The notes below the pieces were generated by a model. That model had not been told where the DNA came from. It worked only from the letters and a program-made list of their open reading frames with translations, and did no database searches. This document shows, piece by piece, positions 1,603 through 56,991 of a DNA stretch of 64,000 bases (positions are counted from its first letter, which is position 1; each line of letters opens with the position of its first letter). The translations under genes were made by a program, and so were the position numbers. Source of the stretch: an uncultured Solirubrobacterales bacterium (GTDB taxonomy: Bacteria; Actinomycetota; Thermoleophilia; Solirubrobacterales; JBBDJG01); contig CAVYJN010000006.1 of the NCBI GenBank assembly GCA_963768885.1, positions 373,258 through 437,257 of the forward strand, in the 5' to 3' direction.

Positions 1603-1623
1603 GCGGCGCCAACATAGCGCCCG

Positions 1624-6772: not shown

Positions 6773-6834
6773 TGTGGACGGCTGTCGCTCTCCGCGCCAG
6801 CGTAGCGCGCGCCGGCGGCCGTGCCGCGGGCCGG

Positions 6835-7056
6835 CTACTTCGCCGGGCGGGGAGCGCCCTTCACCAAGGACGCGGCGTGGTGTCGCAGCCGCTCGAGGTC
6901 GGCCGTGATCTGGTCGATCGCGGAGCGCGCGCTGCGAAAGCTCTCGGAGACCTCCGAACCCGCCGCGCGCGTGCGCGTGCGGCCGCCCGCGGGCTGCGCG
7001 AGCGCCTTCTTCATCTTCTGCACCGGCCGGTGCGGTTTCTCTTCGGGCTTGCTCAT
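6835..7056 (-). CDS. small hypothetical protein (73 aa, basic/helical)
   Basis: The ORF has a strong SD (GGAGGAGAG) directly upstream of ATG 7056. I recognise no family. Confidence 0.5.
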   Translation of the reverse strand: MSKPEEKPHRPVQKMKKALAQPAGGRTRTRAAGSEVSESFRSARSAIDQITADLERLRHHAASLVKGAPRPAK

Positions 7057-7084
7057 CTCTCCTCCGAGGCGGGGAACGATATCC

Positions 7085-7408: not shown

Positions 7409-8671
7409 CTAGTCGGCGAGCGCGCCGGCCATGCCCTTGAGGCCGACGTCCATGAGCTGCCATGCGGTCCCTGCGTGGAAGGGCTCGCCCGCGTTGAAGC
7501 GCATCGGCAGGTAGAAGCCGAGCACCTTCTTCCCCATCCGCCAGAGCGGCGAGACGCCCACCTTGTACTCGCCGTCGGCGTCCGGGCGCACCTCGACCGG
7601 CCGCGACGGATCGCCGGTGACCCGCAGCGGGACCTGCGCGAATGTCGCCTTGTCGAGCATCTCCATCACGCACATGCTGACCGGGTCGAAGGGCTTCGTG
7701 AAGTCGCCGATCCCGATCTGTGAGGCGATGTGATCGGCGCTCGCGTCGGCCTGGAGCATCGCCAGGAACGCCTGCTTGACGGGGAAGTCCCCGGCGTCGC
7801 CGGGGGCGTAGATGTCGGGGTGTCCCCTCACCTGCCGCGTGTCGGGCTCCGTCTCCAGGAAGCCGCGGTCGTCCGAGGGCAGCCCGTCGTAGCGGCAGGC
7901 CGCGACGTAGGGCGGGAACGAGATCAGCTGGTCGAACGGGCGCGTCACGTCGCCCGCGAAGCGGGCCTCGCCGTCCGTCACCTCCGTGACGACCTCGCCG
8001 GTGTGGCCCTCGATGCCGCGCTCGGCGAACTCGCCCACGACGACCTCGTGCAGGCGCGGCCCGAATGCCTGGATGAACGACTGCTCGAAGGTCGAGTAGG
8101 TGATCTTGACCCGCTCGCGCACGCCCTCGCGGCGCAGCCACGTCTCGAGCATGAAGACGATCTCGTAGAGCGGGCCCGCGCACTTGTTGTTCGGGGGCAC
8201 GACGAACAGCACCTCCTGATCGGTCCCGGCGGCCGCACGCGCGCGCAGCGACTGAAGCCGGCGTCCGAGGTCCGTCATGGCCGCGGGCGTCCAGATCGTC
8301 GCGGCGAACTCCGCGAGACCGGGCACCTCCTTGGGGCGCATGTCGGCGCCGGTGCCGATCACGAGGAAGTCGTAGGGGAGGGCGGAGCCGTCCTCGAGGC
8401 CGACCATCCGGCGGTCCGGGTCGACCTCGCGCACGCTTCCCTGCACGAGGTCGATGTGCTGCTTGTAGGTCGGCCGGCGCAGCGGCACGAGAAACGAGTC
8501 GGGGTCTGCCCCGAACGGCACGTAGATGGTGTTCGGCTTGAACAGGAAGGCGTCCCGGTCGGAGACGAGCGTGATGTCGACCTTGCGTCCGGCGCGCATG
8601 CGCAGCAGGAAGGAGGTCTCGAGGCCGGCAAAGCCGCCTCCGAGCACGAGGACACGGGGCACTGAGCTCAT
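7409..8671 (-). CDS. sulfide:quinone oxidoreductase-like FAD-dependent pyridine nucleotide-disulfide oxidoreductase
   Basis: MSSVPRVLVLGGGFAGLETSFLL is a Rossmann GxGxxG start, taken from the internal ATG at 8671 of ORF 7409..8749. It retains a KCAGPLYE segment (Cys-containing, SQR-like) and a PDIYAPGDAG second FAD motif. Confidence 0.8.
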   Translation of the reverse strand: MSSVPRVLVLGGGFAGLETSFLLRMRAGRKVDITLVSDRDAFLFKPNTIYVPFGADPDSFLVPLRRPTYKQHIDLVQGSVREVDPDRRMVGLEDGSALPYDFLVIGTGADMRPKEVPGLAEFAATIWTPAAMTDLGRRLQSLRARAAAGTDQEVLFVVPPNNKCAGPLYEIVFMLETWLRREGVRERVKITYSTFEQSFIQAFGPRLHEVVVGEFAERGIEGHTGEVVTEVTDGEARFAGDVTRPFDQLISFPPYVAACRYDGLPSDDRGFLETEPDTRQVRGHPDIYAPGDAGDFPVKQAFLAMLQADASADHIASQIGIGDFTKPFDPVSMCVMEMLDKATFAQVPLRVTGDPSRPVEVRPDADGEYKVGVSPLWRMGKKVLGFYLPMRFNAGEPFHAGTAWQLMDVGLKGMAGALAD

Positions 8672-11497: not shown

Positions 11498-11531
11498 CCG
11501 TAACAGCCACCCCGTTCTGAACAATGCGGGC

Positions 11532-12270
11532 ATGCCCGACCCGAGACCGGTGGGTGATGGCCTGCTCGGCGTCGCGGCCGAGCATGCGACCGTGCGCGTG
11601 CCGGTCGCCCGGCCGTCGCAGTCGGTGGGGGACGTGCGCTCCGCGCTCGTCGGCCAGGTCCTCGACTCGGCCGACGACGTCGCGGTGCTGGACGACCACG
11701 CGCTCGTGGGGGTCGTGCCGATCGAGCGCCTGCTGGCGGCGCGCGGGGATGCGCGCATCGCCGAGGTCATGGACCCCGACCCGCCGGTCGTCGAGCCGGG
11801 CGTCGACCAGGAGGTCGTGGCCTGGAGCATGGTCCGCCGCAGCGAGTCGAGCATCGCGGTCGTAGACGCGGACGGGCGCTTCGCCGGCCTGATCCCGCCC
11901 CACCGGATGCTCGCCGTGCTGCTCGCCGAGCACGACGAGGACCTCGCGCGCCTGGGCGGCTTCATGGCCGGCAGCGAGCGCGCGCGCAGCGCGGCCGAGG
12001 AGGATGTCAGGCAGCGCCTCTGGCACCGGCTGCCGTGGCTGCTGATCGGGCTGCTGGCGCGACGCGGTCGGCACCCAGACCGAGGCGGTCGTGATCCGCG
12101 GGCTGTCCGTGGGCGTGACGCTGCGCCCGATCGTCGCGATGGCGCTGCCCTGGGCCTTCCAGCGGGCGGGCAGCGACCCCGCGTTCGGGTCGGGCCCGCT
12201 CGCGACCGTGATCCAGGACCTGCTGTCGATCGCGGTCTACCTTGCGATCGCGACCCTGATCGCGACCTAG
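11532..12270 (+). pseudogene. mgtE: MgtE-type magnesium transporter remnant: CBS pair retained, TM domain frameshifted and internally deleted
   Basis: The CBS region and the plug-helix motif (EEDVRQRLWHRLPWLLIGLL) read in the frame of ORF 11532. After ~12057 sense is lost. MgtE TM pieces reappear in another frame from 12070 (GTQTEAVVIRGLSVGVTLRP / IVAMALPWAFQRAGSDPAFGSGPLATVIQDLLSIAVYLAIATLIAT, stop 12268-12270). Only ~67 aa of TM domain remain, against the ~180 aa expected. Confidence 0.75.
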
Positions 12271-12291
12271 AATGCGGTCGAGGTCCTGACG

Positions 12292-12894
12292 ATGGAGAAC
12301 GGTCACCGCAGCGTCACGATTCCGACCGACGCGCCGGTCTGGAAGCACTTCTTCACGGTCGCGCCGCTCGTGATCGTGGGGAGCCGCGAGCCCGACGGCG
12401 GCCACGACCTCGCCCCCAAGCACATGGCGATGCCGCTCGGGTGGCAGAACTACTACTGCTTCGTGTGCAGCCCGCGCCACGCGACCCAGCGCAACATCCA
12501 GGCGCGCCCGGAGTTCACCGTCAGCTTCCCGCGCGCGAGCCAGATCGTGGAGACCAGCATGGCGGCGGCCCCGCGCGCGGACGACAGCTCGAAGCCGAGC
12601 CTCGCTGCGGTCGAGACGTTCCCCGCCTCGACGGTCGACGGCGTGCTCGTGAAGGACGCCTACCTGTGGCTCGAGTGCCGGCTCGAGCGCATCGTGGACG
12701 GGTTCGGCGAGAACAGCCTGATCGTGGGCGAGGTCGTGGCCGCCCGGGTCGACGAGCGCGCGCTGCGGGCATCGGACAGCGACGACGGCGACGTGATCCA
12801 CGGATCGCCGCTGCTCGCCTACCTCAGCCCGGGGCGGTTCGCCGCGGTCGGCGACAGCTACTCGTTCCCGTTCCCGGTCGACATCCGGATCTAG
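12292..12894 (+). CDS. flavin reductase-like / FMN-binding split-barrel domain protein
   Basis: This 200-aa ORF has FFTVAPLVIVGSREPDGGHDLAPKHMAMPLG...LWLECRLERIVDGFGENSLIVGEVV, a pattern typical of the flavin reductase domain. Confidence 0.65.
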   Translation: MENGHRSVTIPTDAPVWKHFFTVAPLVIVGSREPDGGHDLAPKHMAMPLGWQNYYCFVCSPRHATQRNIQARPEFTVSFPRASQIVETSMAAAPRADDSSKPSLAAVETFPASTVDGVLVKDAYLWLECRLERIVDGFGENSLIVGEVVAARVDERALRASDSDDGDVIHGSPLLAYLSPGRFAAVGDSYSFPFPVDIRI

Positions 12895-12907
12895 TGGCCG
12901 GGCTCTA

Positions 12908-14068
12908 GTGGCTCGATCGAGCGCGACGGCGATCCTCGCGGGCCTGCGCGAGCGCGAGCAGGCGATGGCCGACCTGCTCGCGCGACTCGCGCTCGCGGAG
13001 TCGCCGTCGCTCGAGCCCGCGGCCCAGCGGCAGGCGGCGGAGATCCTCTCGGAGGAGCTCGCCGGCCTCGGCTTCGGCGTCGAGCGGCTGGCCGGCGGGA
13101 GCTCGGGCGACCACCTGCTGGCCGAGCGCGGCGGCGCGGACGCAGGCCCGCGCCAGCTCCTGCTCGGCCACCTCGACACGGTCTGGCCCGTCGGGACCGT
13201 GGACCGGATGCCGGTCAGGGTCGAGGGCGGGCGCATCAGCGGGCCCGGGGTCTACGACATGAAAGGGGGCCTGGTGCAGATGCTGTTCGCGCTGCGCGTG
13301 CTGCGCGACCTCGGGCTCGAGCCCGAGGCGCGGCCGGTCGTGTTCGTGAACAGCGACGAGGAGATCGGCAGCCCCAGCTCCGCCGAGCAGATCGGGCGGC
13401 TCGCGCGCTCCGCGGTGCGCGCGTTCGTGCTCGAGCCCTCGTTCGGGCCCTTCGGGAAGCTCAAGACCGCGCGCAAGGGCGTCGGGCGCTTCACCCTGCA
13501 CATCCAGGGGCGCGCGAGCCACGCGGGCCTCGACCCCGAGCAGGGCGTGAGTGCGGTGCTCGAGGCCTCGCACCAGATCCAGCGCCTCTTCGAGTTGAAC
13601 GACCGCGAGCGCGGCGTCACCGTCAACGTCGGCACGATCGACGGCGGCCTGCGCCCGAACGTCGTGGCCCCCGAGGTGACGGCGGAGGTCGACGCGCGGG
13701 TGCTCCACGACGAGGACGCGAGCAGGCTGGAGGCGGCGATCCTGGCGCTCGAGCCCGTGCAGGAGGGGATCACGATCGAGATCGAGGGCGGCTTCGGGCG
13801 ACCGCCGCTCGAGCGGACCCCGCGCAACCGCGAGCTGTGGGAGGCGGCGCGGGAGGCCGCCGGCGCGCTCGGGATCCCCCTCGACGAGGCGACGGTCGGG
13901 GGCGCCTCCGACGGCAACCTCACGAGCCGGCACACGGCGACGCTCGACGGTCTCGGGCCCGTCGGCGAGGGCGCGCACGCCCCCGACGAGTACGTTTCGC
14001 TGTCGCAGATGCCGGAGCGCGCCGCTCTGCTCGCGCTGCTCGTCATGATGCCCGCCGGCGGGCGCTGA
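12908..14068 (+). CDS. M20 family metallopeptidase (carboxypeptidase G2-like)
   Basis: LLLGHLDTVWPVGT, VFVNSDEEIGSPSS, a GRASHAGLDPEQG dimerisation-domain region, and C-terminal GGASDGN...GPVGEGAHAPDEYV. Confidence 0.85.
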   Translation: MARSSATAILAGLREREQAMADLLARLALAESPSLEPAAQRQAAEILSEELAGLGFGVERLAGGSSGDHLLAERGGADAGPRQLLLGHLDTVWPVGTVDRMPVRVEGGRISGPGVYDMKGGLVQMLFALRVLRDLGLEPEARPVVFVNSDEEIGSPSSAEQIGRLARSAVRAFVLEPSFGPFGKLKTARKGVGRFTLHIQGRASHAGLDPEQGVSAVLEASHQIQRLFELNDRERGVTVNVGTIDGGLRPNVVAPEVTAEVDARVLHDEDASRLEAAILALEPVQEGITIEIEGGFGRPPLERTPRNRELWEAAREAAGALGIPLDEATVGGASDGNLTSRHTATLDGLGPVGEGAHAPDEYVSLSQMPERAALLALLVMMPAGGR

Positions 14069-15589: not shown

Positions 15590-18193
15590 TCAGGCCGGAC
15601 GCCCCTCGTAGCCCGCGCGCAACAGGTCCAACAGCTCGCTCACCATCGGGATGCGCGGATTCGTGCGCACGCTCGGGTCCATGAAGGCCGCGCGCGCGAG
15701 GTCCGGAAGCGCGGCCTCGAACTCCTCGCGCGGCACGCCCGCCTCGGCCAGCGAGCGCGGGATCCCGACCTCGTCGAGCAGCTCGTCGACGCGCTCGAAC
15801 AGCCGCGCGCGCCGCTCGTCGCGGCTGTGGGCGCCGAGCCCGAACACGTACGCGATCTGCGCGTACTTCTCGGGGGCGACGTACGCGGTGTAGCTCGGCG
15901 CGGGCATGAACTTGCTCGGCAGCGACGCGTTGTAGCGCAGCACGTGCGGCAGGAAGATCCCGTTGGCGCGACCGTGCGCGATGCCGAAGCGGGCACCGGT
16001 CGCGTGTGCGAGCGCGTGGCAGACGCCCACGAAGGCGTTCGAGAACGCGAGGCCGGCGATCGTCGCGGCGTTGGCCATCGCGGTGCGCGCCTCGAGGTCC
16101 GAGCCCTCGGCGTGCGCGCGCGGGAGGTTGCGCAGGATCAGGTTCACCGCCTGCATCGCGAAGGCGTCCGTGTAGGGCGACGCGAAGATCGACACGGCGG
16201 CCTCGAGCGCGTGCGTGAGCGCGTCGACGCCGGTGTCCGCCGTCACCTGCGCGGGCATCGTGAGCGTGAGGCGCGGCTCCACGATCGCCGTGTCGGGCAC
16301 GAGCGAGTAGTCGACCAGCGTGACCTTGCGGTCGCCGACCGTGATCACGGCCGCAGGCGAGACCTCGGACCCCGTGCCCGCGGTCGTCGGCACCGCGACG
16401 AGCCGCACGCGGTGGTCGATCTGCGGATAGCCCGCGACGCGCTTGCGCGCGTCGAGGAATGGGAGGGCGAGCTCGCGCATCTCGAGCTCGGGGCTCTCGT
16501 AGAACAGCCGCATCGCCTTCGCGGCGTCGAGCACCGACCCTCCGCCGAGGGCAAGGATCGTGTCGGGCTCGAAGCGCTCGAGCGCTTCGACTCCGGCGCG
16601 CACCTGCTCCTCCGGCGGCTCGGGTCCGATGTCGGCGAACACGTGCACGCTCGCGCCGCCGAGGAAGCGCCGCACGTCGTCGACGGCCCCGCGCGCCTCG
16701 CAGTCGGCATCGGTGACGACCATCACCTGGCGCGCGTCGAGCTGTCGCAGGTTCTCGAGCGCGCCCGTGTTGAAGTAGGTGTCCGACGGCACGCGGAACC
16801 ACTGGGGCGGCGCCTGCCGGTGGGAGACCGCCTTGATGTTGAGCAGGTTGCGGTAGTTGATGTTGTCGGTCGTGTGCGAGCCGCCCCAAGTCCCGCATCC
16901 GAGCGAGAACGTCGGGGTCATCGAGTTGTAGACGCCGCCGAGCGCGCCCACGGCGGTCGGCGCGTTGACCAGGATCCGGCCGGTCCGGATGACGGCGGCG
17001 AACCGGTCGACGACGTCGCGGTCGCGCGCGTAGACCGCCGACGTGTGGCCCAGCCCGCCCGTCTCGGTGACCAGCTCGCAGGCCGCGATCCCGTGCTCGA
17101 CCGACGGCGAGCGCACGATCCCCAGGACCGGCATGAGCTTCTCCTGGAGGAAGGGGTGCGCGGCCAGCTCGGTGACGTCGGAGGGCAGCGGCGCCACCAG
17201 CACCTTGGCGTCGGCGCGGATCTCGATTCCGGCCATCGCGGCGAGGTTCGGGCACGACTGGCCGAGGGCGGCCAGCTCGATGTCGCCGTCCTCGCCGACC
17301 AGCGCGCCCTCCAGGCGATGCACCTGCTCGTCGCTCAGGACCTGGGCGCCCATGCGCTCCAGCTCGGCCGTGAGCTCGTCGTAGACGGGCTCGTCGACGA
17401 CGCAGGTCTGCTCCGCGGGGCAGATCACGGACGCGTCGAAGGTCTTCGAGATCAGGATGTCGACCACCGCCATGCGCACGTCCGCGCTGCGGTGCACGTA
17501 CACGGGGGCGTTGCCGGAGCCGACGCCGAGGCACGGCTTGCCCGCCTCGTTCGTCGCCGCGACGGCCTTCGGCCCGCCCGTGGTCCAGATGAAGTCCACC
17601 CCGGGGTGGTGGAAGAGGTACTGGGAGACGTCGAGCGTCGGATCGGGGATCACCTGCAGCGCGTGCGCCGGCAGGCCCGCGTCCTGCCCGGCGGCCTGGA
17701 GGATCTCGACCGCCCGCGTCGCGCAGCGCGCCGCGCGCGCGGAGGGCCGGAAGATCATGGCGTTGCGCGTCTTGGCAGCGACGATCCCCTTGAACAGCGC
17801 CGTCGAGGTGGGGTTGGTGATCGGGAGCAGGGCGAGCACGACGCCGATCGGCTCGGCCACGTACTCGATGTGCCGCTCGAGGTCCTCCTCGATCACGCCC
17901 ACCGACGGCTTGTCCTTCAGGTAGTCCCACAGGAACTCGGTGGCGATGTAGTTCTTGATCACCTTGTCCTCGAACACGCCGAAGCCGGTCTCCTCCATCG
18001 CCAGCTCGGCCAGCTCGACCGCCGCCTCGAGGCCTGCGACCACCATCGCCCACACGATGCGGTCGACGGACTCCTGGTCGAGCCGGCGCAGCTGCTGCGC
18101 CGCCGCCTGCGCCCGCTCGACGAAGTCGTCGAGGCGCGCGGCCTGGCCGGCGTCCACCCGGCCGTCCGCTTGCGTGGCTGTCGTGGAGGTCAT
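15590..18193 (-). CDS. adhE: bifunctional acetaldehyde-CoA / alcohol dehydrogenase
   Basis: An N-terminal aldehyde dehydrogenase domain is joined to a C-terminal iron-type ADH (GGGSVLDAAKAM...TGSEVSPAAVI...HALAHATGARFGIAHGRANG). The start is taken at ATG 18193 (MTSTTATQ), which has GGAGG upstream, not at the ORF-track start 18280. Confidence 0.9.
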   Translation of the reverse strand: MTSTTATQADGRVDAGQAARLDDFVERAQAAAQQLRRLDQESVDRIVWAMVVAGLEAAVELAELAMEETGFGVFEDKVIKNYIATEFLWDYLKDKPSVGVIEEDLERHIEYVAEPIGVVLALLPITNPTSTALFKGIVAAKTRNAMIFRPSARAARCATRAVEILQAAGQDAGLPAHALQVIPDPTLDVSQYLFHHPGVDFIWTTGGPKAVAATNEAGKPCLGVGSGNAPVYVHRSADVRMAVVDILISKTFDASVICPAEQTCVVDEPVYDELTAELERMGAQVLSDEQVHRLEGALVGEDGDIELAALGQSCPNLAAMAGIEIRADAKVLVAPLPSDVTELAAHPFLQEKLMPVLGIVRSPSVEHGIAACELVTETGGLGHTSAVYARDRDVVDRFAAVIRTGRILVNAPTAVGALGGVYNSMTPTFSLGCGTWGGSHTTDNINYRNLLNIKAVSHRQAPPQWFRVPSDTYFNTGALENLRQLDARQVMVVTDADCEARGAVDDVRRFLGGASVHVFADIGPEPPEEQVRAGVEALERFEPDTILALGGGSVLDAAKAMRLFYESPELEMRELALPFLDARKRVAGYPQIDHRVRLVAVPTTAGTGSEVSPAAVITVGDRKVTLVDYSLVPDTAIVEPRLTLTMPAQVTADTGVDALTHALEAAVSIFASPYTDAFAMQAVNLILRNLPRAHAEGSDLEARTAMANAATIAGLAFSNAFVGVCHALAHATGARFGIAHGRANGIFLPHVLRYNASLPSKFMPAPSYTAYVAPEKYAQIAYVFGLGAHSRDERRARLFERVDELLDEVGIPRSLAEAGVPREEFEAALPDLARAAFMDPSVRTNPRIPMVSELLDLLRAGYEGRPA

Positions 18194-18318
18194 CGTCCCG
18201 CCCTCCGGAGGAAGGTACGGGCCGGGGGGCGCGCCTGCCTCCGTGGAGACTGCGGATCGGGTGCGGTGGTGAATACGCATGCGGCACGGAGTGCCGCTGT
18301 CTAGCTTGGGAAACGAGG

Positions 18319-19752
18319 ATGACCGACCACCTCACGCCCCTCGACGCGACCTTTCTCGAGCTCGAGCAGTCCGACGAGTCCGCGCACATGCACATCGGCG
18401 GCGCGCTCGTGTTCGATCCGCGCCCGGACGGATCGGCGCCGAGCGTCGGAGACGTGTGCCGGCACCTCGACTCCCGGCTCTCGCGCCTGCCGCGCTACCG
18501 CCGCAAGCTGTCCGAGCCCCATACGGGCGGCCTCACATGGCCGGCGTGGGAGGACGACGAGCGCTTCCACCTCGCGTCCCACGTGCGCCACGCGGCGCTG
18601 CCCGCGCCCGGTGGGGGCCAGGAGCTGTGCGAGTGGCTCGGGGACTACTGGTCGCACCGCCTGGACCGCCGCCGGCCGCTGTGGGAGGTCGTGCTGCTCG
18701 ACGGCCTCGAGGGCGGTCGCTGGGCGCTCGTCACGAAGACGCACCACGCGATGATGGACGGGGTCGGGTCGGTGGACGCGGGCTACCTGATGCTCGACGA
18801 CGATCCCGAGTCCTCCGAGCAGCTCGGCACGCTCGAGGCGGCCCCGCCGGAGAGCCCGCCCGCGGATCGCTCTCGCCGCTCCCAGGTGGCGGGCGCGTTG
18901 CGGTGGATGCCCGAGCACCTGCTGCGCGCCGCACGCGGCGGCGCGGACGTCGCGCTGCATCCGCACAAGGCGCTCGAGATGCTGGAGCGCTCGCGTGCGA
19001 CCGTCGAGCTGCTGATGCGCGACGAGGTGGTCAGGGCGCCGCGCTCCTCGCTCAACTGCGACATGGGCGCGACGCGCAGCTTCGCCGTCGTGCGCGTGCC
19101 GCTCTCCGACCTGAAGGCGATCAAGTCACGCCAGGGAGGCACGGTGAACGACGTCGCGCTCGCGGCCGTCACGGGCGGCCTGCGGCGACTGCTGACCGCG
19201 CGCGGGGAGGACCCGCCGGCCCAGGGCCTGCGCGCGATGGTCCCGATGAACGTGCGCCAGGCATCGGAGAAGCTCGCGCTCGGCAACAGGGTCTCTTCGC
19301 TGTTCGTGCACCTGCCGGTCGGGGTCGAGACCACGGCCGACCGCTACCGGCACGTGACGCGGGAGGCCGAGGCGCTCAAGTCCGGCACGCAGTCGCTCGG
19401 GACGTCGACGATCATCTCGCTCGCCGGCCTCGCGCCACCCGTGATCCATGCGAGCATCGCGCGGAGCCTGTACGCGACGCGCCTCTTCAACGTGACGGTC
19501 ACGAACGTGCCCGGGCCGCAGACGACGCTCTACGCGCTCGGCGCGCGGATGCGCGAGATCCTGCCCCTGGTCCCGCTCGCGGCCGAGCACGCGGTCGGCG
19601 TTGCGATCTTCTCCTACGACGGAAACGTCGTCTTCGGCATCAACGCGGCGACGGACGCGGTTCCCGATCTGAACGTCCTGCGCGACGGCATCGCGGACGA
19701 GCTCCAGGCGCTGCGCGACCTTGCTGCCACGGCGCAGCCGGCCCCGATGTGA
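18319..19752 (+). CDS. wax ester synthase / diacylglycerol acyltransferase (WS/DGAT, Tgs-like)
   Basis: The catalytic HHxxxDG motif is present (TKTHHAMMDGVGSVD). The family-typical C-terminus is NVPGPQTTLYALGARMREILPLVPL. Confidence 0.9.
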   Translation: MTDHLTPLDATFLELEQSDESAHMHIGGALVFDPRPDGSAPSVGDVCRHLDSRLSRLPRYRRKLSEPHTGGLTWPAWEDDERFHLASHVRHAALPAPGGGQELCEWLGDYWSHRLDRRRPLWEVVLLDGLEGGRWALVTKTHHAMMDGVGSVDAGYLMLDDDPESSEQLGTLEAAPPESPPADRSRRSQVAGALRWMPEHLLRAARGGADVALHPHKALEMLERSRATVELLMRDEVVRAPRSSLNCDMGATRSFAVVRVPLSDLKAIKSRQGGTVNDVALAAVTGGLRRLLTARGEDPPAQGLRAMVPMNVRQASEKLALGNRVSSLFVHLPVGVETTADRYRHVTREAEALKSGTQSLGTSTIISLAGLAPPVIHASIARSLYATRLFNVTVTNVPGPQTTLYALGARMREILPLVPLAAEHAVGVAIFSYDGNVVFGINAATDAVPDLNVLRDGIADELQALRDLAATAQPAPM

Positions 19753-21125
19753 GCATCACGGTCACAGAGGGCCGCGCCGACGAACGACGCAAGGTGCTGA
19801 TCGCCGGCGGGGGCGTCGCCGGCGCAGAGACGCTCCTGGCCCTGAGCGCGATCGCGCCGTCCCGGGTATCGCTCGAGCTGATCGCGCCCGACCCGGACCT
19901 CACCTATCGGCCCCTCTCGGTCGCGGAGCCCTTCGGCCGAGCCACGACGAGGCGGCTCCCGCTGGCCGAGCTCGCCGCCGACCGCGGGGCGCACTACCGG
20001 TGTGACGGGCTCGAGCGCGTGGACCCCGGCGGGCGCGTGGTGCACACGAGCACGGGCGCCGCGCTTCCCTACGACTTCCTCGTGCTCGCGACAGGCGCGC
20101 GCGCGAGCGTCGCGCTGCCCGGGGCGGTCACGTTTCGCGGCCCCGCGGACATCATCGCGTTCGAGCAGCTGCTCGAGGGGGTGGAGGAGGGAGCCGTGCG
20201 ACGGCTCGCGTTCGCGGTCCCGCACGGGGTCGCCTGGCCGCTGCCGATCTACGAGCTGGCCCTGATGACGGCCGCCCATCTCGCGGCCGCGGGCACCCCC
20301 GAAGTCGAGATCACGATCGTCACTCCCGAGCGCGAGCCGCTCGACGTCTTCGGTCCCGCGCCGAGCAAGCGCGTGCGCGCGCTGGCCGAGGAGGCCGGGG
20401 TCCGGCTGCTCACCTCGCATGCGCCCTCCTCCGTGGAGCCCGGCAGCCTCGTGCTGATGAGCGGCGCGAGCGTGCCCGCCGACCGCGTCGTCGCGCTTCC
20501 GATGCTCGACGTCCCGCCGATACCGGGAGTCCCGCAGGGGCCGCGCGGGTTCATCCCGACCGACCCCTCGTTCCGGGTCGACGGGCTGGACGGCGTGTAC
20601 GCGGCGGGGGACGTGTCCTGGTACCCGATCAAGCAGGGTGGGCTCGCGGCCCAGCAGGCGGACGTCGTCGCCACCGCGATCGCCGCCGCCGCCGGGGAGC
20701 CCGTCCGGGCGACGCCGTTTCACCCGGTGATGCGGGGCATCCTGATCACGGGCGACAGGCCGGTGCACATGCGCGGCGGCGACGGCTTCGATCCGGCGGC
20801 GGGCACCGAGCCCCTGTGGTGGCCGCCGGGGAAGGTCGCGGGCCGCTACATCACGCCCTATCTGGCCGAGCGCCGGGGTGACCTCCCGCATTCTCCGCTG
20901 GCCGAGATCGAGCACCCGACGCGCGACGAGGAAGGGGTGGACCAGCCGGGCGTGCTGGAGATGTCCCTTGCCGCCGCCGACGCCAGCGCCCTGTCCGAGG
21001 ACTTCGAGGGAGCGCTTCGCTGGCTCGACGCGGCGGAGCAGCTCAATGTCGTGCTGCCGATCGACTACGCGCGCAGGCGTCGCGCCTGGAAACGCGCCCT
21101 CGCGGAGCAGCGACAGGCGAACTGA
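19749..21125 (+). CDS. FAD-dependent pyridine nucleotide-disulfide oxidoreductase, SQR/NDH-2-like but without the SQR cysteine segment
   Basis: GTG 19749 overlaps the WS/DGAT stop (ATGTGA). KVLIAGGGVAGAETLLAL Rossmann start and GVYAAGDVSWYPIKQGGLAAQQA second FAD motif. It is a paralogue of 56992..58179. Only the last 458 codons of track ORF 18279..21125 are credible. Confidence 0.8.
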   Translation: MSITVTEGRADERRKVLIAGGGVAGAETLLALSAIAPSRVSLELIAPDPDLTYRPLSVAEPFGRATTRRLPLAELAADRGAHYRCDGLERVDPGGRVVHTSTGAALPYDFLVLATGARASVALPGAVTFRGPADIIAFEQLLEGVEEGAVRRLAFAVPHGVAWPLPIYELALMTAAHLAAAGTPEVEITIVTPEREPLDVFGPAPSKRVRALAEEAGVRLLTSHAPSSVEPGSLVLMSGASVPADRVVALPMLDVPPIPGVPQGPRGFIPTDPSFRVDGLDGVYAAGDVSWYPIKQGGLAAQQADVVATAIAAAAGEPVRATPFHPVMRGILITGDRPVHMRGGDGFDPAAGTEPLWWPPGKVAGRYITPYLAERRGDLPHSPLAEIEHPTRDEEGVDQPGVLEMSLAAADASALSEDFEGALRWLDAAEQLNVVLPIDYARRRRAWKRALAEQRQAN

Positions 21126-21128
21126 GCC

Positions 21129-23462
21129 GTGGCCGTGCCGCTCGAGCAATGCGCGGACCTACCGGCGGCGCGTGTGGGCGGCAAGGCGAAGACGCTCGGC
21201 GCCGCGCTGCGGGCGGGATTTCCGGTCCCGCCCGGGGTCGTGATCGAGCCCGGCGAGCCCGTCGACGTCGACGCGGTGGTCGCCCTGCTGGGCGAGGGCC
21301 CGTTCGCCGTGCGCTCCTCGTCCCCGCACGAGGACGGCGCGGACGCCTCGTGGGCGGGGCAGTTCGTGACGCGGCTGTGGGTCGCCGCGGACTCGCTGGA
21401 GCGCGCCGTCGAGGACGTGCGCGCCTCGGGCACGGGCGCGGCGGCGCGCGCCTACGGCGGTCCGTCGGAGCCGATCCCGGCGCTCGTGCAGCCGATCGTG
21501 ACCGCGGATGCCGCGGGCGTGATGTTCACGATCGACCCGCGCGACGGGCGCGACGACCGGTGTGTGGTGGAGGCGGTCGCGGGCCTCGGCGAGCCGCTCG
21601 CGGACGGCCGCGCCGAGCCGGCCCGCTTCCTGGTCGACGCACTGTCGGAGCAGGTGATCGAAGCGGAGCGCGCGGAGGCGGCCGGCATCGACGGCGAGCG
21701 CCTGCGCGAGGTGGTCGCGCTCGGCCTGCGGGTGTCCGAGTGGCGCGGCGAGCCGCTCGATCTCGAATGGGCGTGGGCGCTGGGCCGCGCGTGGCTCCTG
21801 CAGGCCCGGCCGATCACGGCCGCGTCGTGGGCGCCGGCCCCGGGCCAGTGGACCGGCGCCAACTTCAAGGAGGTGATGCCGGGCGTCGTGACGCCGTTGA
21901 CCGCGTCGCTGGGGCTCGAGCACGACTTCCCCCGCGCGGTGGGCGAGTTCGCCGCCGACCTCGGCGTGATTCCCGCCGGCGAGCGCGTCACCGAGGGCCG
22001 GCGCTTCTACGGCCACGCCTACTGGCGCGTGGACAAGGTCAAGGACGCGATGTCGAAGCTCCCGGGCTTCCGCGAGCGCTCGTTCGACGCGACGATCGGC
22101 ATCGCGCCCGCCTACGACGGGGACGGCCGCGTGTCCGGCTGGACTGCCACGACCCTGCGCCACGCCCTCCCCGCGCTGCGCGCGATGCGGCGCGCCTACC
22201 GCGACGACGGCCCGGCCGCGGGCCGCTACCGGGACGGGTTCGCGGCCGAGGAGCGGGAATGGCTTGCGATCGACTGGCAGTCGCTGCCGGACGGTGAGCT
22301 CGCCGAGCGCGTGCGCGAGGCGGTCCGGCAGCATTGGCGCACGAACCACTGGGCGATGCGGGTCTCGTTCCTCTCCGAGCAGGCGCAGGACGATCTGAGG
22401 ACGGCGCTCACCCCGCTGAACGCGCGGCTCGATCCGCCCCCGAGCGAGGGTCTGCTGCTCGCCAACCTGGAAGAGCTCGCCACGGGTCGCGCCGCACGCG
22501 CCCTGGACGAGCTTGCCGCCCGTCACCGCGAATGGCGCCATGAGGTCGATGCCGCAACTGATCCCCGGGAGCTTCCCGCTCCGGTGCGCGACGAGTTCGA
22601 GGACCTCGTGGCGACCTTCGGCTACATGGCCGAGGCCGACGAGGAGCTCTCGCAGCCACGCTGGGAGGAGGATCCCGCTCTTCCTTTCGCGCTCCTGAAG
22701 GCGGCGATCGCCGTGGACGGGCACCCCGAGAGCACGAGCCAGGCGACCGGCGCCGCGGAGGAGCGCCGCGTGCTCGCCGCCGCGGGCCGGCGGGCAGGTT
22801 CGATCCGTCGCAAGCTGATGCGCGCGCGCCGCTACGCCTGGTGGCGCGAGGAGTTGCGCGACGTGCTCATGCGAACGAACCGGCTGCACCGGAGGGCGTT
22901 CCTGGCGCTCGGCCAGAGCTGGTCGCGGCGCGGGATGATCCAGCAGCCCGACGACGTCTTCTGGCTGACGGCTCCTGAGCTGGAGGCGGCGCTCGACGAT
23001 CGCGACGCGCTGTCGCGCCTTGCCTCCGAGGTACCGCGCCGGCGCCGCCACGCCGACCGCTTTCGCCGCTGGCGCCCGCCCGAGACGCTCGGCGCCCCTC
23101 CGCGGGCATCGGCCGCCCCCGCCGGCGCGGCACGGTCGCTCGCGGGAACGGCGTGCTCGTCGGGGGTCGCGGAGGGCCCGGTCTGCGTGCTGCGCTCGCT
23201 CGACCAGGCGCCCTCGGTGAGGCCGGGATCGATCCTCGTGCTCGAATACTCGAACCCGGGGTGGACCCCGGTCTACACCGTTGCCGCCGGGCTGGTCACC
23301 GAGGAGGGAGGGTTGCTCTCGCACGGCTCGATCGTGGCGCGTGAGCGCGGCCTGCCGGCGGTGATCCAGGTTCGCGACGCCACGCGCCTGCTGCGCGACG
23401 GGCAGCGCGTGCGCATCGACGGCGACCGGGGCAGTGTGCTGGTGCTCGACGAAGGCGAATGA
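21129..23462 (+). CDS. PEP/pyruvate-binding (PPDK_N-type ATP-grasp) plus PEP-utilizer mobile His domain protein; architecture as in rifampicin-phosphotransferase-like enzymes
   Basis: The N-terminus is VGGKAKTLGAALRAGFPVPPGVVI...FAVRSSSPHEDGADASWAGQF...DLEWAW. The C-terminal swivel domain is LVTEEGGLLSHGSIVARERGLPAV. It starts 3 nt after the previous stop. Confidence 0.8.
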   Translation: MAVPLEQCADLPAARVGGKAKTLGAALRAGFPVPPGVVIEPGEPVDVDAVVALLGEGPFAVRSSSPHEDGADASWAGQFVTRLWVAADSLERAVEDVRASGTGAAARAYGGPSEPIPALVQPIVTADAAGVMFTIDPRDGRDDRCVVEAVAGLGEPLADGRAEPARFLVDALSEQVIEAERAEAAGIDGERLREVVALGLRVSEWRGEPLDLEWAWALGRAWLLQARPITAASWAPAPGQWTGANFKEVMPGVVTPLTASLGLEHDFPRAVGEFAADLGVIPAGERVTEGRRFYGHAYWRVDKVKDAMSKLPGFRERSFDATIGIAPAYDGDGRVSGWTATTLRHALPALRAMRRAYRDDGPAAGRYRDGFAAEEREWLAIDWQSLPDGELAERVREAVRQHWRTNHWAMRVSFLSEQAQDDLRTALTPLNARLDPPPSEGLLLANLEELATGRAARALDELAARHREWRHEVDAATDPRELPAPVRDEFEDLVATFGYMAEADEELSQPRWEEDPALPFALLKAAIAVDGHPESTSQATGAAEERRVLAAAGRRAGSIRRKLMRARRYAWWREELRDVLMRTNRLHRRAFLALGQSWSRRGMIQQPDDVFWLTAPELEAALDDRDALSRLASEVPRRRRHADRFRRWRPPETLGAPPRASAAPAGAARSLAGTACSSGVAEGPVCVLRSLDQAPSVRPGSILVLEYSNPGWTPVYTVAAGLVTEEGGLLSHGSIVARERGLPAVIQVRDATRLLRDGQRVRIDGDRGSVLVLDEGE

Positions 23463-23486
23463 GAACCGCGACCGAGGAGGTTGACG

Positions 23487-24731
23487 ATGGCGACCACGAC
23501 GCAGGGGATCACCAACGAGGCGGCGTTCGAGGTGATCGGCGCGTACCTCTCGCGCCACAAGGCGGACGCCTTCAGGGCATTGGGCGTCGACGCGGTCCAG
23601 GACCGCCGCGAGGGTGTGCGCATCTGGGACCTCGAGGGCAATTCGTTCATCAACTGCCGCAGCTCCGGGGGAGTTTTCAACTTCGGTCATCACCCGCGGT
23701 TCGCGGTCGACGCGCTGAAGGCCGCGCTCGACGAGCACGACATGGGCGACTGGCTGCTCCCGTCGCTGAGACGCGCCAGGGGGGCCGAGGCGCTGGCCGC
23801 GATCCTGCCCGGTGACCTGCGCTACACGTTCTTCACCCCGTCGGGGGCGGAGGCGGTCGAGGTCGCCTGCAAGCTCGCGCGCGGCGTCACGGGGAGGGCG
23901 GGGATCGTGTGCGCCGAGCACGGCTACCACGGGCACGTGGGCTTCTCGCTGGCGATGGACGAGGACGAGTATTCACATTGGTTCAGGCCGCTCGTGCCCG
24001 GCATCTCGAAGGTGCCGTTCGGGGACGTCGATGCGATCGACCGCGCGGTCGGCGACGACACGGCCGCCGTGTGCCTGGAGACGATCCAGGCGACGGCGGG
24101 CATCGCGATCCCGCCGGACGGCTATCTCGAGCACGTGCGCCGCGTGTGCGACGAGCGCGGCGCGCTGCTGATCCTGGACGAGGTGCAGGCGGGCCTCGGG
24201 CGCACGGGACGCGTGTGGTCGTGCGAGCACTGGGGCGTGACGCCCGACCTGCTGGTGTCGGGCAAGGGCCTCGCGGCCGGGCTGTATCCGGTCTCGGCGT
24301 GCTCGTTCACGGAGCGCGTGGAGGCGTTCTTCGGCGAGGACCCCTTCTTCCACCCGTCGAGCTACGGCGGCTCCGAGCTCGCCGCGGTGGTCGTGGGGGA
24401 GGTCGCGGCGCGCGTCGCGGACCCGGGATTCCTCGCGCAGGTGACCCGCATGGGGGAGCGTTTCGGTGCGGGCTTCGAGGACCTCCGGCGGCGCCACCCG
24501 CGGAAGCTCGCCGGCCACCGTGCGAAGGGCCTGATGATGGCGCTCCAGACGCACTCCGACGAGCAGGGCATCGAGCTGGCAAGGCGGTCGATCGAGCACG
24601 GCGTGCTCGCGATCTTCGCCAACAACCGCCGTTCGGCGCTGATCGTGATGCCGCCCCTGGTGATCTCCGAGGACGAGGCCGACGAGGTGCTGGAGGGGCT
24701 CGACGCCGCCCTCGCCGCGACGGCCGGCTAG
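23487..24731 (+). CDS. class-III (omega) aminotransferase, PLP-dependent
   Basis: SGGVFNFGHHPR, FTPSGAEAVEVACKLAR, LILDEVQAGLGRTGRVW and SGKGLAAGLYPVSA (Lys in SGK) are all present. ATG 23487 is preceded by GAGGAGG. Confidence 0.85.
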   Translation: MATTTQGITNEAAFEVIGAYLSRHKADAFRALGVDAVQDRREGVRIWDLEGNSFINCRSSGGVFNFGHHPRFAVDALKAALDEHDMGDWLLPSLRRARGAEALAAILPGDLRYTFFTPSGAEAVEVACKLARGVTGRAGIVCAEHGYHGHVGFSLAMDEDEYSHWFRPLVPGISKVPFGDVDAIDRAVGDDTAAVCLETIQATAGIAIPPDGYLEHVRRVCDERGALLILDEVQAGLGRTGRVWSCEHWGVTPDLLVSGKGLAAGLYPVSACSFTERVEAFFGEDPFFHPSSYGGSELAAVVVGEVAARVADPGFLAQVTRMGERFGAGFEDLRRRHPRKLAGHRAKGLMMALQTHSDEQGIELARRSIEHGVLAIFANNRRSALIVMPPLVISEDEADEVLEGLDAALAATAG

Positions 24732-24732
24732 G

Positions 24733-24891
24733 TCAGCCGCCGCGCTGCGGCACTCCGCCCGCGCGCCCGAGGTCGAGCGCGACGGCGAGGATCAGGGTCG
24801 CCGTCCAGGCGTTCACGGGATCGGCCTTCAACGGCTCGTCGCCGCCGATGAGGTTGGCGATCAGCCAGATCGCGAACCAGAGGACTGTCAT
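24733..24891 (-). CDS. small hydrophobic protein (52 aa), hypothetical
   Basis: MTVLWFAIWLIANLIGGDEPLKADPVNAWTATLILAVALDLGRAGG, with GGAGG 7 nt upstream of ATG 24891. It is the only credible part of track ORF 24733..26082. Confidence 0.4.
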   Translation of the reverse strand: MTVLWFAIWLIANLIGGDEPLKADPVNAWTATLILAVALDLGRAGGVPQRGG

Positions 24892-27827: not shown

Positions 27828-28148
27828 TCATGCGCTCGCCGGGGCGGCCTCCGCCGCGAACGACATCTGGCTTGCGAGCACCTGTCCTTCCTTGACCTCG
27901 ACGTCGGAGAGCTGGAATCCGCCAAGCCTCTGCTCGACGAACCGTGCCGCGCGGCGGGTGCAATCGTCGATGCCCTCGCGCGTGTCGAAGACGGCCACCG
28001 ACGCGATCCGCGAATCGCCGGCGTCGATCAGGTAGTAGGCACGGAAGCCCTTGATCGACGCAACCTCGGTGACGAAGCCCTCGGCCTCGCGCGCGAGGTC
28101 GACCTGGCTGCCCGAGCCGATCGTGTAGCTGTGCAAGGTCACGTACAA
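27828..28148 (-). CDS. ABM-like (dimeric alpha/beta-barrel) protein
   Basis: TTG 28148 has GGAGG 7 nt upstream. LYVTLHSYTIGSGSQ...IKGFRAYYLIDAGDSRIASVAVFDTREG resembles the antibiotic-biosynthesis-monooxygenase fold. Confidence 0.5.
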   Translation of the reverse strand: MYVTLHSYTIGSGSQVDLAREAEGFVTEVASIKGFRAYYLIDAGDSRIASVAVFDTREGIDDCTRRAARFVEQRLGGFQLSDVEVKEGQVLASQMSFAAEAAPASA

Positions 28149-28241
28149 GCGGGAACCTCCATAGAAGTCTGGAGGGCTGATCGTCACGCAGGCACGTCGT
28201 GCATTCATCGGTGCCACCTGCGGATCGCCCTTCCGCCCTTA

Positions 28242-29354
28242 CTACGTAGAGGGTCCGAGCGCCCCCTGCGCCGCTCGGGCCCGTTCGTCGTCCAGGCTCC
28301 ACTCCCTGGCCGTCCGCAGCAGGCCCAGGAACGCGAGCGTGCCGGGGATCGTCGGCAGCCAGAACGCGAAAGCCCGGTAGGACAGCACGCCCACGATCGC
28401 GAGCCCGCCGTCCACGCCGAACGCGATCAGGGCGCCGATCATCCCCGCGTCGACGCTGCCCACGCCGCCCGGCACCGGGAACGCGTTGGCGGCCGTTCCC
28501 ACGAAGTAGGACATCACCACGACGCCCACCGGCGGCGGCGTGCCGAAGGCATGCAGGCAGGCCCACAGCACCGCCACGTCGAACGCCCACCAGCCCACGG
28601 CTCCGAGCAGCGCGGGGCTCCGGGCCCTCGCGAGCAGGAGCGCGCCCCGCAGCCCGGATGCGAGGGTGGCCGACAGCAGCGCGAGACGCGTGGTCCAGCG
28701 CGACGCGCTGTCGGCGCGCGGAGGAAGGGAAGCCGCGGGCCGGCCGGCCGCCGGGGCGAGCGCGAGCGCGAGGGCGAGCGCGATCACCAGGCCGCCGAAC
28801 AGCGCGGGCGCGATCGTGATCCCGGGAGAGCCGTCGCCCGGGAGGAGGCCCGTGGCGAGCGCGAGGCCGAACACCAGCAGGGCGGCCATGTAGACGCCGT
28901 ACAACAGCACCATGAACGTGGTCATGCGCGCGGCCACCTCCGCGCGCTCCATGCCGGAACGCCGGAGCGCCCAGACCGTCAGCACGATCCCGCCTGCCCC
29001 GGCCGCGGCGAACAGCCGTGTGGCGGCTACGCCGGCCATCGTGATCCGGTAGCTCTCGGGCCACCCGATGCGGGACCCGGGCCGCACGAACACGAAGCGG
29101 AACAGGACCACGTAGCTCGCATACGAGAGCAGCTCGAGCACGATCGCGGCGCCGAGCCACCACGGGTCCCCGTCGCCGATCCGGTCCCAGGTGCGCTCGA
29201 GCCCCGCGAGCCTCGGCACCACGTAGTAGAGGGCGCCGAGCGAGACCGCGAGGAACACGCCGAGCGCGGCGAGCCGCCGGCGCGTGAACGCCGTCCAGGG
29301 AGGCGCCGCGCGGCCGGGGTCCGGAGTGCCGGCGGCTTCGACCGGCCGGGTCAA
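28242..29354 (-). CDS. flippase-like / lysylphosphatidylglycerol-synthase TM-region family membrane protein
   Basis: A multi-TM protein with the family-typical ANAFPVPGGVGSVDAGMIGALIAFG. The proposed TTG 29354 overlaps the upstream USP stop (TTGA). The start is uncertain, since the ORF extends to 29543. Confidence 0.6.
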   Translation of the reverse strand: MTRPVEAAGTPDPGRAAPPWTAFTRRRLAALGVFLAVSLGALYYVVPRLAGLERTWDRIGDGDPWWLGAAIVLELLSYASYVVLFRFVFVRPGSRIGWPESYRITMAGVAATRLFAAAGAGGIVLTVWALRRSGMERAEVAARMTTFMVLLYGVYMAALLVFGLALATGLLPGDGSPGITIAPALFGGLVIALALALALAPAAGRPAASLPPRADSASRWTTRLALLSATLASGLRGALLLARARSPALLGAVGWWAFDVAVLWACLHAFGTPPPVGVVVMSYFVGTAANAFPVPGGVGSVDAGMIGALIAFGVDGGLAIVGVLSYRAFAFWLPTIPGTLAFLGLLRTAREWSLDDERARAAQGALGPST

Positions 29355-34790: not shown

Positions 34791-34802
34791 GCGAGCAGCG
34801 GC

Positions 34803-36201: not shown

Positions 36202-36226
36202 GGGGGGGCTTGCGGCAAGCCCCGGG
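36202..36226 (+). terminator. GC-rich hairpin downstream of 34803..36197
   Basis: GGGGCTT (36205-36211) pairs with AAGCCCC (36217-36223) around a 5-nt loop, 5 nt after the stop. There is no U-tract. Confidence 0.4.
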
Positions 36227-56990: not shown

Positions 56991-56991
56991 C

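Follow-up and report, generated by a model that had tools for sequence, protein, structure and literature searches.

A probable DevS/DevR-type hypoxia island in an uncultured Solirubrobacterales bacterium carries adhE, a WS/DGAT-family acyltransferase, and a conserved flavoprotein-dikinase-aminotransferase module

INTRODUCTION

To our knowledge, dormancy regulons of the DosR/DevR type have been studied almost only in mycobacteria and Streptomyces. The tgs genes of mycobacteria are DosR regulated and among the most hypoxia-induced genes, and MSMEG_3934 of Mycobacterium smegmatis, a "putative PEP (phosphoenolpyruvate) synthase," is DosR regulated and induced 70-fold in hypoxia, with an annotated activity that does not fit easily with the PEP levels measured (bioRxiv 10.1101/2023.09.11.557286). 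Our literature search found no link between DosR and Thermoleophilia, Solirubrobacter, Conexibacter, or Rubrobacter. Here we describe a stretch of 64,000 nucleotides (the window) from contig CAVYJN010000006.1 of an uncultured Solirubrobacterales bacterium (Thermoleophilia), in which the gene for a bifunctional acetaldehyde-CoA/alcohol dehydrogenase (adhE) is divergent from four closely packed genes encoding a WS/DGAT-family O-acyltransferase, a flavoprotein with the fold of sulfide:quinone oxidoreductase (SQR), a dikinase with the architecture of rifamycin phosphotransferase (RPH), and a class-III aminotransferase. On balance, we regard this cluster as probably a single transcription unit belonging to a hypoxia or dormancy regulon of the DevS/DevR (DosS/DosR) type, and as a composite, in which an adhE and WS/DGAT theme is joined to a separate flavoprotein-dikinase-aminotransferase module.

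Several described pathways resemble parts of this module. In tambjamine biosynthesis, the PigC-type enzyme TamQ is paired with a fatty amine made by the transaminase TamH, and in streptidine synthesis the conversion of myo-inositol to scyllo-inosamine phosphate follows a dehydrogenase-aminotransferase-kinase logic. PigC, RedH, TamQ, and HapC belong to the same superfamily as the window's dikinase and activate a carbonyl oxygen with ATP via a phosphohistidine, while PigE and TamH are class-III transaminases that make an amine and are paired with a dikinase-superfamily enzyme in one pathway. Aminocyclitol and amino-alcohol pathways likewise encode alcohol or carbonyl redox, transamination, and O-phosphorylation side by side, but with different enzyme families in every slot, and cyclitol or sugar genes are not consistently linked to the loci studied here. 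The known actinobacterial rph genes all carry an upstream rifamycin-associated element (RAE) (bioRxiv 10.1101/2021.05.10.443488).

RESULTS AND DISCUSSION

Gene order and conservation of the cluster

Genes of the window, which has a G+C content of 73% throughout, were called by GC3-guided open reading frame (ORF) calling together with profile searches (Pfam, NCBIfam), and neighborhoods were compared through tblastn synteny and tables of called genes. The first-pass annotation had described four tightly packed genes facing adhE across a shared control region, and both the packing (junctions of -4, 3, and 24 nt, read directly from the sequence) and the divergent arrangement were verified (Table 1). 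The WS/DGAT and flavoprotein genes overlap by 4 nt (GTGA) within ATGTGA at 19747-19752; that hexamer stands where the annotation had placed it, but its ATG belongs to the WS/DGAT gene, as the final in-frame Met codon, and the flavoprotein starts at GTG 19749, a start supported by the likeness of its N terminus (VSITVTEGR) to that of the orthologue at locus L004 (MSVTVIEGR). The flavoprotein stop (TGA, 21123-25) is separated by GCC from the dikinase start, GTG 21129, although the database copy of the dikinase (P0001) starts at 21135, and the dikinase stop (TGA, 23460-62) is followed by 24 nt that include GAGGAGG, 7 nt upstream of the aminotransferase start at ATG 23487. Because the junctions are this short, they leave no room for internal promoters, and together with their conservation they point to co-transcription of 18319-24731 as a single message. 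Directly beyond the aminotransferase stop, a convergent 51-codon ORF bounds the unit and marks where the operon ends on its 3' side; L003 has a version with 82% identity in the corresponding position, and no family match was found for this ORF. Terminator-like sites in the window are no more numerous than expected by chance.

The annotation had left open that the neighborhood might recur in no other genome, yet the arrangement is kept in Solirubrobacterales metagenome-assembled genomes (MAGs) and soil metagenome contigs. The closest dikinase relatives are almost all metagenomic. In the GTDB species set there are two close dikinase loci, L006 (80% identity) and L005 (74%), both in uncultured Solirubrobacterales MAGs. 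L006 has the full arrangement, with adhE divergent from WS/DGAT-flavoprotein-dikinase-aminotransferase; L005 has the same four genes with an MMPL gene upstream and no adhE. In L001, adhE is divergent from WS/DGAT, and three inserted genes (two on the opposite strand) precede flavoprotein-dikinase-aminotransferase, while L004 has those three genes with other genes upstream. The adhE orthologues of L001 and L006 are 88-92% identical to that of the window, each divergent from WS/DGAT. L003 and L049 show dikinase-aminotransferase at contig ends, and the P0014 contig (65% identity) has the order universal stress protein (USP)-dikinase-aminotransferase-glycosyltransferase, with a convergent WS/DGAT gene. 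Equally tight junctions (0-24 nt) in the same order were found in L001, L003, L004, L005, and L006, and the recurring order and tight junctions appear to exceed chance. On five further contigs, flavoprotein and dikinase matches may be co-located, as judged only from coinciding listed longest-contig sizes; one more pair with a coinciding size is the L004 contig itself.

The proposal that the four enzymes, with adhE, serve one pathway is not supported by these comparisons, given the insertion in L001, the other upstream genes in L004, the missing adhE in L005, and the convergent WS/DGAT on the P0014 contig. Judged by gene order, WS/DGAT and adhE are detachable, facultative neighbors; the conserved unit is flavoprotein-dikinase-aminotransferase, an order kept in L001, L004, L005, and L006, and the deepest unit dikinase plus aminotransferase. 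In L005 the dikinase and aminotransferase are open as one continuous frame (9629-13612), either a natural fusion or a long-read indel error, and the flavoprotein matches in L006 are split.

At greater distance, L045 and L050 each place an aminotransferase with 51-52% identity to that of the window beside a dikinase with 38-41% identity, and L099 also has a class-III aminotransferase with a dikinase (P0029, 34% identical). Both L045 and L099 come from Bacillota MAGs, and in each a gene for a Zn-dependent dehydrogenase converges on the pair; in L050 the pair is flanked upstream by GOGAT and downstream by a Liv-type ABC importer. L049 and L050 were the only informative loci added by a wider scan of metagenome contigs. 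A dikinase clade 47-49% identical to the window's protein is paired with an AONS-like pyridoxal phosphate (PLP) enzyme and a FAD_binding_4/ALO oxidase, within a cluster of fatty acid synthase (FAS) and UbiA genes. Because three unrelated oxidoreductase families thus fill the slot beside a PLP enzyme and a dikinase, the pattern suggests redox, transamination, and O-phosphorylation on one metabolite. No aminotransferase lies beside the dikinase relatives of L100 and Mycobacterium aurum (L046). The latter homologue (30% identical) was considered as an analogue from a DosR context and rejected; its neighbors are TetR, luciferase-like, and APH genes.

The cluster of the 47-49% clade (L002, L043/L048, and L044) looks like an undescribed lipid-type biosynthetic cluster. 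It encodes the AONS-like Aminotran_1_2 enzyme, the FAD_binding_4/ALO oxidase (DprE1-like), a UbiA prenyltransferase, and an AIRS-domain protein, along with a 4HBT_3 thioesterase, MCAT, KAS III, KAS, a MaoC dehydratase, and ketoreductases.

Table 1. Features of the window (positions in nucleotides of the window)
Feature	Position	Strand	Details
PEP synthase gene, ppsA	1592-3954	-	Genuine ppsA (PPDK_N + mobile His domain + PEP-utilizers_C), broken over three frames
GNAT + CoA-binding + ATP-grasp_5 protein	4046-7084	-	Large; left side of island; ADP-forming acetyl-CoA synthetase/protein acetyltransferase type
SQR-like Pyr_redox_2 paralogue	7409-8629	-	Closer to type III SQR (111 bits)
adhE, bifunctional acetaldehyde-CoA/alcohol dehydrogenase	15590-18193	-	867 aa; start ATG 18193, GGAGGG just before
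adhE/WS-DGAT divergent control region	18194-18318	.	125 nt, read from sequence
15-bp box CCGTGGAGACTGCGG	18241-18255	+	In adhE/WS-DGAT control region; conserved on through ATCG to 18259
WS/DGAT-family O-acyltransferase	18319-19752	+	477 aa; WS_DGAT_cat + WS_DGAT_C
SQR-fold FAD flavoprotein	19749-21125	+	458 aa; Pyr_redox_2 (PF07992)
RPH-architecture dikinase	21129-23462	+	777 aa; PPDK_N (PF01326) + PEP-utilizers (PF00391)
Class-III (omega-amine) aminotransferase	23487-24731	+	414 aa; Aminotran_3 (PF00202), 245 bits
Convergent 51-codon ORF	24733-24885	-	Abuts aminotransferase stop; coding-like GC3
Box copy ACGTAGTAAGGGCGG	28233-28247	-	Upstream of conserved 108-aa gene 27828-28154
S30AE_C protein	32687-33079	-	
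PRTase + alpha/beta-hydrolase	34791-36197	+	
RAE-like palindrome GGGGCTTGCGGCAAGCCCC	36205-36223		Exact 19-bp palindrome
Rox-type FAD monooxygenase	36284-37827	+	~60 nt downstream of palindrome; split over three reading frames
P-type ATPase	~39.4-42.8 kb		Frame-split
M50 + CBS protein	42901-44043	+	
Box copy ACGTACTTTCCACGG	45601-45615	+	Downstream of HAD gene, upstream of tandem-USP gene
AAA_33 protein	51570-53159	-	
Palindromic box copy CCGTAGATCCCACGG	53235-53249	.	AAA_33/regulator divergent region
NarL/DevR-type response regulator	53436-54092	+	Candidate island regulator; Response_reg + GerE; start GTG 53436
DevS/DosT-type sensor kinase	54685-56375	-	GAF-GAF-HisKA_3-HATPase_c
Box copy ACGTAGATACTACGG	56442-56456	+	Divergent region between kinase gene and third SQR-like paralogue
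SQR-like Pyr_redox_2 paralogue	56956-58179	+	44-47% identical to operon copy
Box site	61643		Upstream of ABC operon

Regulators and island genes

The oxygen-limitation idea put forward for the cluster gains support from the rest of the window. The sensor kinase is of the DevS/DosT type: its first GAF domain matches DosT (2vzw, E values of 9e-41 and 7e-40) and also DevS (2w3d/2y8h), and its GHPPM (proximal heme His) and LYLT (distal Tyr) motifs align with theirs. The response regulator has mycobacterial DevR (PDB 3c3w, E=2e-29) as its second-best match. Also in the window are two tandem-USP genes and one single USP gene, AAA_33, CBS, M50+CBS, HAD, P-type ATPase, hemerythrin, and PRTase-hydrolase genes, and an S30AE ribosome-hibernation factor (S30AE_C), and most island genes recur together in L003, L005, and L006. 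The S30AE_C, PRTase-hydrolase, M50+CBS, and AAA_33 genes resemble the Mycobacterium tuberculosis DosR members Rv0079, Rv0571c, Rv2625c, and Rv2004c, which may be their counterparts.

This repertoire appears to be that of the mycobacterial DosR regulon. Shared features are a heme-GAF kinase in which the motifs for the proximal His and distal Tyr are present, a NarL-family regulator whose own gene is preceded by a box, and a set of USPs, CBS, AAA_33, P-type ATPase, S30AE factor, and a WS/DGAT-type triacylglycerol (TAG) synthase (tgs1 in mycobacteria). Unlike the mycobacterial system, the island belongs to a member of the Solirubrobacterales rather than of the Mycobacteriales, and it adds adhE, three SQR-like flavoproteins (called Cys-less), and the dikinase and aminotransferase pair. 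Gene context of this kind, with the heme-GAF kinase, DevR-type regulator, USPs, hemerythrin, S30AE, CBS, and AAA_33, makes an oxygen-limitation reading of the cluster well supported.

The ppsA and P-type ATPase genes of the window are split over frames and are either pseudogenes or products of long-read indel errors.

A candidate operator

The first-pass annotation had placed a copy of a box, which it left undefined, in the adhE/WS-DGAT control region, and a conserved 15-bp element is indeed present there. Its sequence upstream of WS/DGAT is identical in L005 and L006 and matches at 13 of 15 positions in L001, with diverged flanks, and the palindromic copy upstream of the regulator gene is identical at the orthologous site in L003 and L005, where the left flanks are unrelated. 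The copy at 28233 is near-identical at the orthologous site in L003 (4626). Since the box is kept upstream of WS/DGAT in L005, which lacks adhE, it would serve at least the WS/DGAT side. Three blocks of the control region are conserved across four genomes, namely, the box, TACGCATG (18274-18281), and CTAGCTT (18301-18307), which contains a -10-like TAnnnT hexamer.

Six intergenic box sites (18241, 28233, 45601, 53235, 56442, and 61643) have A+T-rich centers. The pattern MCGTRS-N5-RCGG occurs 17 times in the window against 7.6 +/- 2.9 expected, a count reached in 0 of 100 shuffles, and 6 of 16 box sites lie in intergenic DNA, which makes up ~10% of the window (binomial P = 0.004, a value that is partly circular, as the motif was found by eye in the same regions). 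We regard the box as a candidate binding site of the DevR-like regulator. TGCGG direct repeats with a phasing of ~10-11 nt follow the box at 18251-18268 (TGCGGatcgggTGCGG) and also occur in L004 at 2050-2090, upstream of its flavoprotein-containing unit (TGCGGgttTGCGGagctttGCGG); they may be additional half-sites.

Other operator candidates were rejected. The mycobacterial DevR box GGGAC-N4-GTCCC is underrepresented in the window (48 matches versus 84 expected), and the inverted repeat GGCAC-N3-GTGCC at 18283 is neither enriched (7 versus 6.3 expected) nor conserved in L005, L006, and L001. Enrichment was weak or absent for CTCCGTRS, for TRCGGATS, and for a variant of the box with incorrect spacing. 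The full palindrome CCGTAG-N3-CTACGG with 3 mismatches was not enriched (42 versus 34), which leaves the looser MCGTRS-N5-RCGG as the one enriched pattern. The recurring GGRGAACTMCGRATG is a Shine-Dalgarno sequence with a start codon.

We propose that, as oxygen falls, the heme-GAF kinase would phosphorylate the NarL/DevR-type regulator, which would then bind the box in the divergent region and drive expression both ways, of adhE to one side and of WS/DGAT-flavoprotein-dikinase-aminotransferase to the other; translational coupling would link the downstream genes. DevR binding and hypoxic induction are what we infer from this arrangement. adhE and WS/DGAT form a pairing that is classical for hypoxia: AdhE could then reoxidize NADH by forming ethanol from acetyl-CoA, and the WS/DGAT enzyme could store acyl-CoA as triacylglycerol or wax ester, like tgs1 of the mycobacterial DosR regulon. 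Both proteins are readily placed in their families: AdhE has an N-terminal Aldedh domain fused to C-terminal Fe-ADH and ADH_Fe_C domains and scores 1045 bits against the equivalog model NF010378 (cutoff, 951), and the acyltransferase scores 412 bits against TIGR02946 (cutoff, 310) and carries HHAMMDG, an HHxxxDG motif, at residue 142.

Enzymes of the conserved module

The flavoprotein (AF2 model, pLDDT 85) has the two-domain FAD fold of SQR. Its top Foldseek matches are SQRs (3hyv, E=2e-24, TM 0.64/0.68), followed by NDH-2, and the best are the Aquifex, Acidithiobacillus, and Acidianus enzymes (TM 0.62-0.68). It shares the two-Rossmann FAD fold with SQR types I-III and NDH-2 but differs from both in several respects. 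Trp163 occupies the position of the SQR catalytic Cys, where 3hyv has Cys156 and 3h8i has Cys178, and does not vary among 26 family members; the SQR redox pair (Cys156/Cys347 in Aquifex numbering) is missing, and no Cys is invariant in the 26 sequences. Direct reading of residues 150-175 (AFAVPHGVAWPLPIYELAL) finds no second GxGxxG motif for NADH of the kind expected in NDH-2, and a helical extension of ~90 residues follows at the C terminus. The protein had been called cysteine-less, which holds for the SQR redox cysteines but not strictly, as one nonconserved Cys (C85) is present. It probably cannot carry out sulfide chemistry. Members of its large family (6628 matches) are routinely misnamed SQR. 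It is one of three SQR-like Pyr_redox_2 paralogues in the window. The copy at 56956-58179 and the DevS-like kinase gene are oriented divergently, and a box lies in the region that separates them; the copy at 7409-8629 is divergent from an ArsR-MMPL pair, with an A+T-rich operator-like palindrome.

The aminotransferase is an intact class-III enzyme, matching PF00202 over profile positions 12-403 and carrying the PLP-Lys motif SGKG at residue 258 and a DEVQxGxGRTG motif. Its best solved relative is the Escherichia coli putrescine aminotransferase YgjG (PatA; 240 bits), with which it shares the class-III fold and both motifs, followed by PigE (211 bits). It nevertheless falls below the cutoff of every NCBIfam equivalog, including those for putrescine aminotransferase (NF008570, 281 bits versus 612; TIGR03372, 242 versus 659). 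The nearest solved relatives are true transaminases. A phospho-lyase role (a kinase, a class-III-fold phospho-lyase, and an aldehyde dehydrogenase, as in aminopropanol utilization) was set aside, as the best 60 of 61 solved relatives (E<=1e-30) include no phospho-lyase.

The assignment of RPH-like architecture to the dikinase, like the other domain assignments, was verified by Pfam and NCBIfam and by fold. The protein has an N-terminal ATP-grasp domain (PPDK_N), a helical middle domain (Rph_4th, taken from the precomputed annotation of P0001), and a C-terminal swivel-His domain (PEP-utilizers, residues 698-768), the domain order of RPH. His732, in GGLLSHG (a G-G-x-x-S/T-H motif), is invariant in 21 sequences and places the protein in the His-swivel dikinase superfamily. 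The sole full-length Foldseek match of the AF2 model (pLDDT 81) is Listeria RPH (RPH-Lm, 5hv1; E=6e-32, ~20% identity), an enzyme with the same ATP-grasp, helical substrate, and C-terminal swivel-His domains and the same catalytic His motif; HpeI, PpsA, and PPDK match in part, through an ATP-grasp or a His domain. Scores against the prodiginine-type enzymes are far below their cutoffs (PigC, 192 bits versus 1300; RedH, 218 versus 1350; and, for the aminotransferase, PigE, 244 versus 850), and no pyrrole-biosynthesis genes were seen near the dikinase.

It is very improbable that the dikinase is a rifamycin phosphotransferase, a resistance gene residing in the operon by chance. The structural match to Listeria RPH alone, the top PDB sequence match (5fbs, 241 bits), and the Rph_4th domain on P0001 would fit such a role, but identity to RPH-Lm is low and the RPH equivalogs are missed by a wide distance (NF041857, 198 bits versus 999; NF000283, 138 versus 1700), the gene is operon internal, and it is conserved beside an aminotransferase and partnered with a flavoprotein. 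No RAE was found upstream of it. The one RAE-like palindrome in the window (0.05 expected by chance) precedes the Rox-type monooxygenase gene instead; the C-terminal 378 aa of the latter score 644 bits against NF005303 and 338 bits against rif_monoox. Less credible still is a gluconeogenic PEP synthase or PPDK, even though JGI names several homologues "pyruvate, water dikinase" and the top NCBIfam rows are the PRK06241 "phosphoenolpyruvate synthase" models. The protein has no Pfam match to the PEP/pyruvate barrel PEP-utilizers_C (PF02896), reaches 166 bits of the required 740 for TIGR01418 and 261 of 883 for PRK06241, and has its His domain at the C terminus, as in RPH, and a three-domain ppsA lies in the same window. 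By these comparisons the dikinase appears to be no orthologue of RPH, PigC/RedH, or PEP synthase; it is probably RPH-like in mechanism without being an RPH.

Interpretation of the module

We suggest that flavoprotein, dikinase, and aminotransferase form a separate module acting on one common small metabolite. The aminotransferase, working with the glutamate/2-oxoglutarate couple, would convert a terminal amine to an aldehyde or ketone or the reverse. The dikinase would pass the beta-phosphate of ATP via His732 to an oxygen of the metabolite (a hydroxyl or an enolized carbonyl) with release of AMP and Pi, and the SQR-fold flavoprotein would exchange two electrons between this metabolite and quinones of the pool. 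Candidate substrates are omega-amino alcohols, diamines, and amino aldehydes, which, like the order of the reactions, we infer from the enzyme families. Only tentatively do we go further and propose an undescribed hypoxia-induced pathway, a possibility we hold to be real but doubtful, in which the flavoprotein couples the quinone pool to an amine or carbonyl metabolite, possibly as a quinol-oxidizing electron sink in anoxia, and the RPH-type dikinase captures the product in the form of a phosphate ester or enol phosphate.

A single lipid pathway would account for the cluster differently: a fatty amine, or else an amino or phospho head group, would be made or activated by the aminotransferase and dikinase and acylated by WS/DGAT, and the flavoprotein would desaturate or oxidize it, yielding a dormancy-specific amino- or phospholipid. 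In L005 and L006, as in the window, WS/DGAT and the module are directly coupled, and in L001 and on the P0014 contig they are at most 3 kb apart; the 47-49% dikinase clade sits among type II FAS, UbiA, and thioesterase genes, a 33% identical relative is accompanied by phosphatidylserine decarboxylase and MMPL genes, and TamQ with its TamH-made fatty amine offers a precedent. We nonetheless think this unlikely, since opposite-strand genes split off WS/DGAT in L001, WS/DGAT is not directly upstream in L004, no acyltransferase accompanies the pairs of the Bacillota MAGs and L050, and the enzyme scores like an ordinary family member whose place beside a hypoxia regulon TAG storage already explains. 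Mere co-residence in a stress island, with no common substrate for the three proteins, has in its favor the large and mostly dikinase-unlinked aminotransferase family and a similarly large flavoprotein family, two of whose three copies in the window lie elsewhere in the island. It too seems improbable, for the fixed order and 0-24-nt junctions persist down to 65-74% protein identity, and dikinase and class-III aminotransferase are adjacent even in another phylum (38-41% and 51-52% identical, respectively), beside oxidoreductases of differing family.

Several points weigh against the reading that we prefer, a hypoxia-regulated transcription unit with a separate conserved module. Conservation appears within one order and in a few distant pairs, and close dikinase relatives occur in 2 of 185,579 GTDB species representatives, a search made by two peptide patterns only. 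The aminotransferase family is very large (5820 matches at E<=1e-40), and many members 61-69% identical lie on long contigs whose listed sizes match none of the contigs of the best 120 of 735 dikinase matches, a weak test that uses longest-contig sizes only; because most close aminotransferases show no linked dikinase, the pairing is not obligate. The box was defined by eye, its consensus is loose, and it is unlike the mycobacterial DevR box (MCGTRG-N3-CYRCGG versus GGGAC-N4-GTCCC), so that another regulator could bind it. Several genes in the assembly of the window are frame-split, and single-base junction details carry some risk, although the four operon genes are intact.

Implications

The window shows what appears to be a complete island of the DevS/DevR type in Thermoleophilia, a group of soil bacteria that are abundant and for the most part uncultured. 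Its novelty would lie in a different candidate operator and in the combination of AdhE fermentation, TAG storage, and an uncharacterized redox-transamination-phosphorylation module. Should the module prove to be ordinary amine catabolism, its value would be limited to better annotation. It otherwise offers a testable handle on three large families that are mislabeled automatically: a "sulfide:quinone oxidoreductase" without the catalytic Cys, a "pyruvate, water dikinase" without the pyruvate domain, and a "putrescine aminotransferase" below the cutoff. It also provides a comparison for the hypoxia-induced "PEP synthase" of M. smegmatis. MSMEG_3934 is similarly a dikinase annotated as PEP synthase within a DosR regulon and adjoins an S30AE gene, but the likeness is one of annotation and context only, and its counterpart in the window may be ppsA rather than the RPH-type gene. 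If the tentative pathway of the three enzymes holds, RPH-like "PEP synthases" of dormancy regulons, possibly including MSMEG_3934, would gain a role outside antibiotics and gluconeogenesis.

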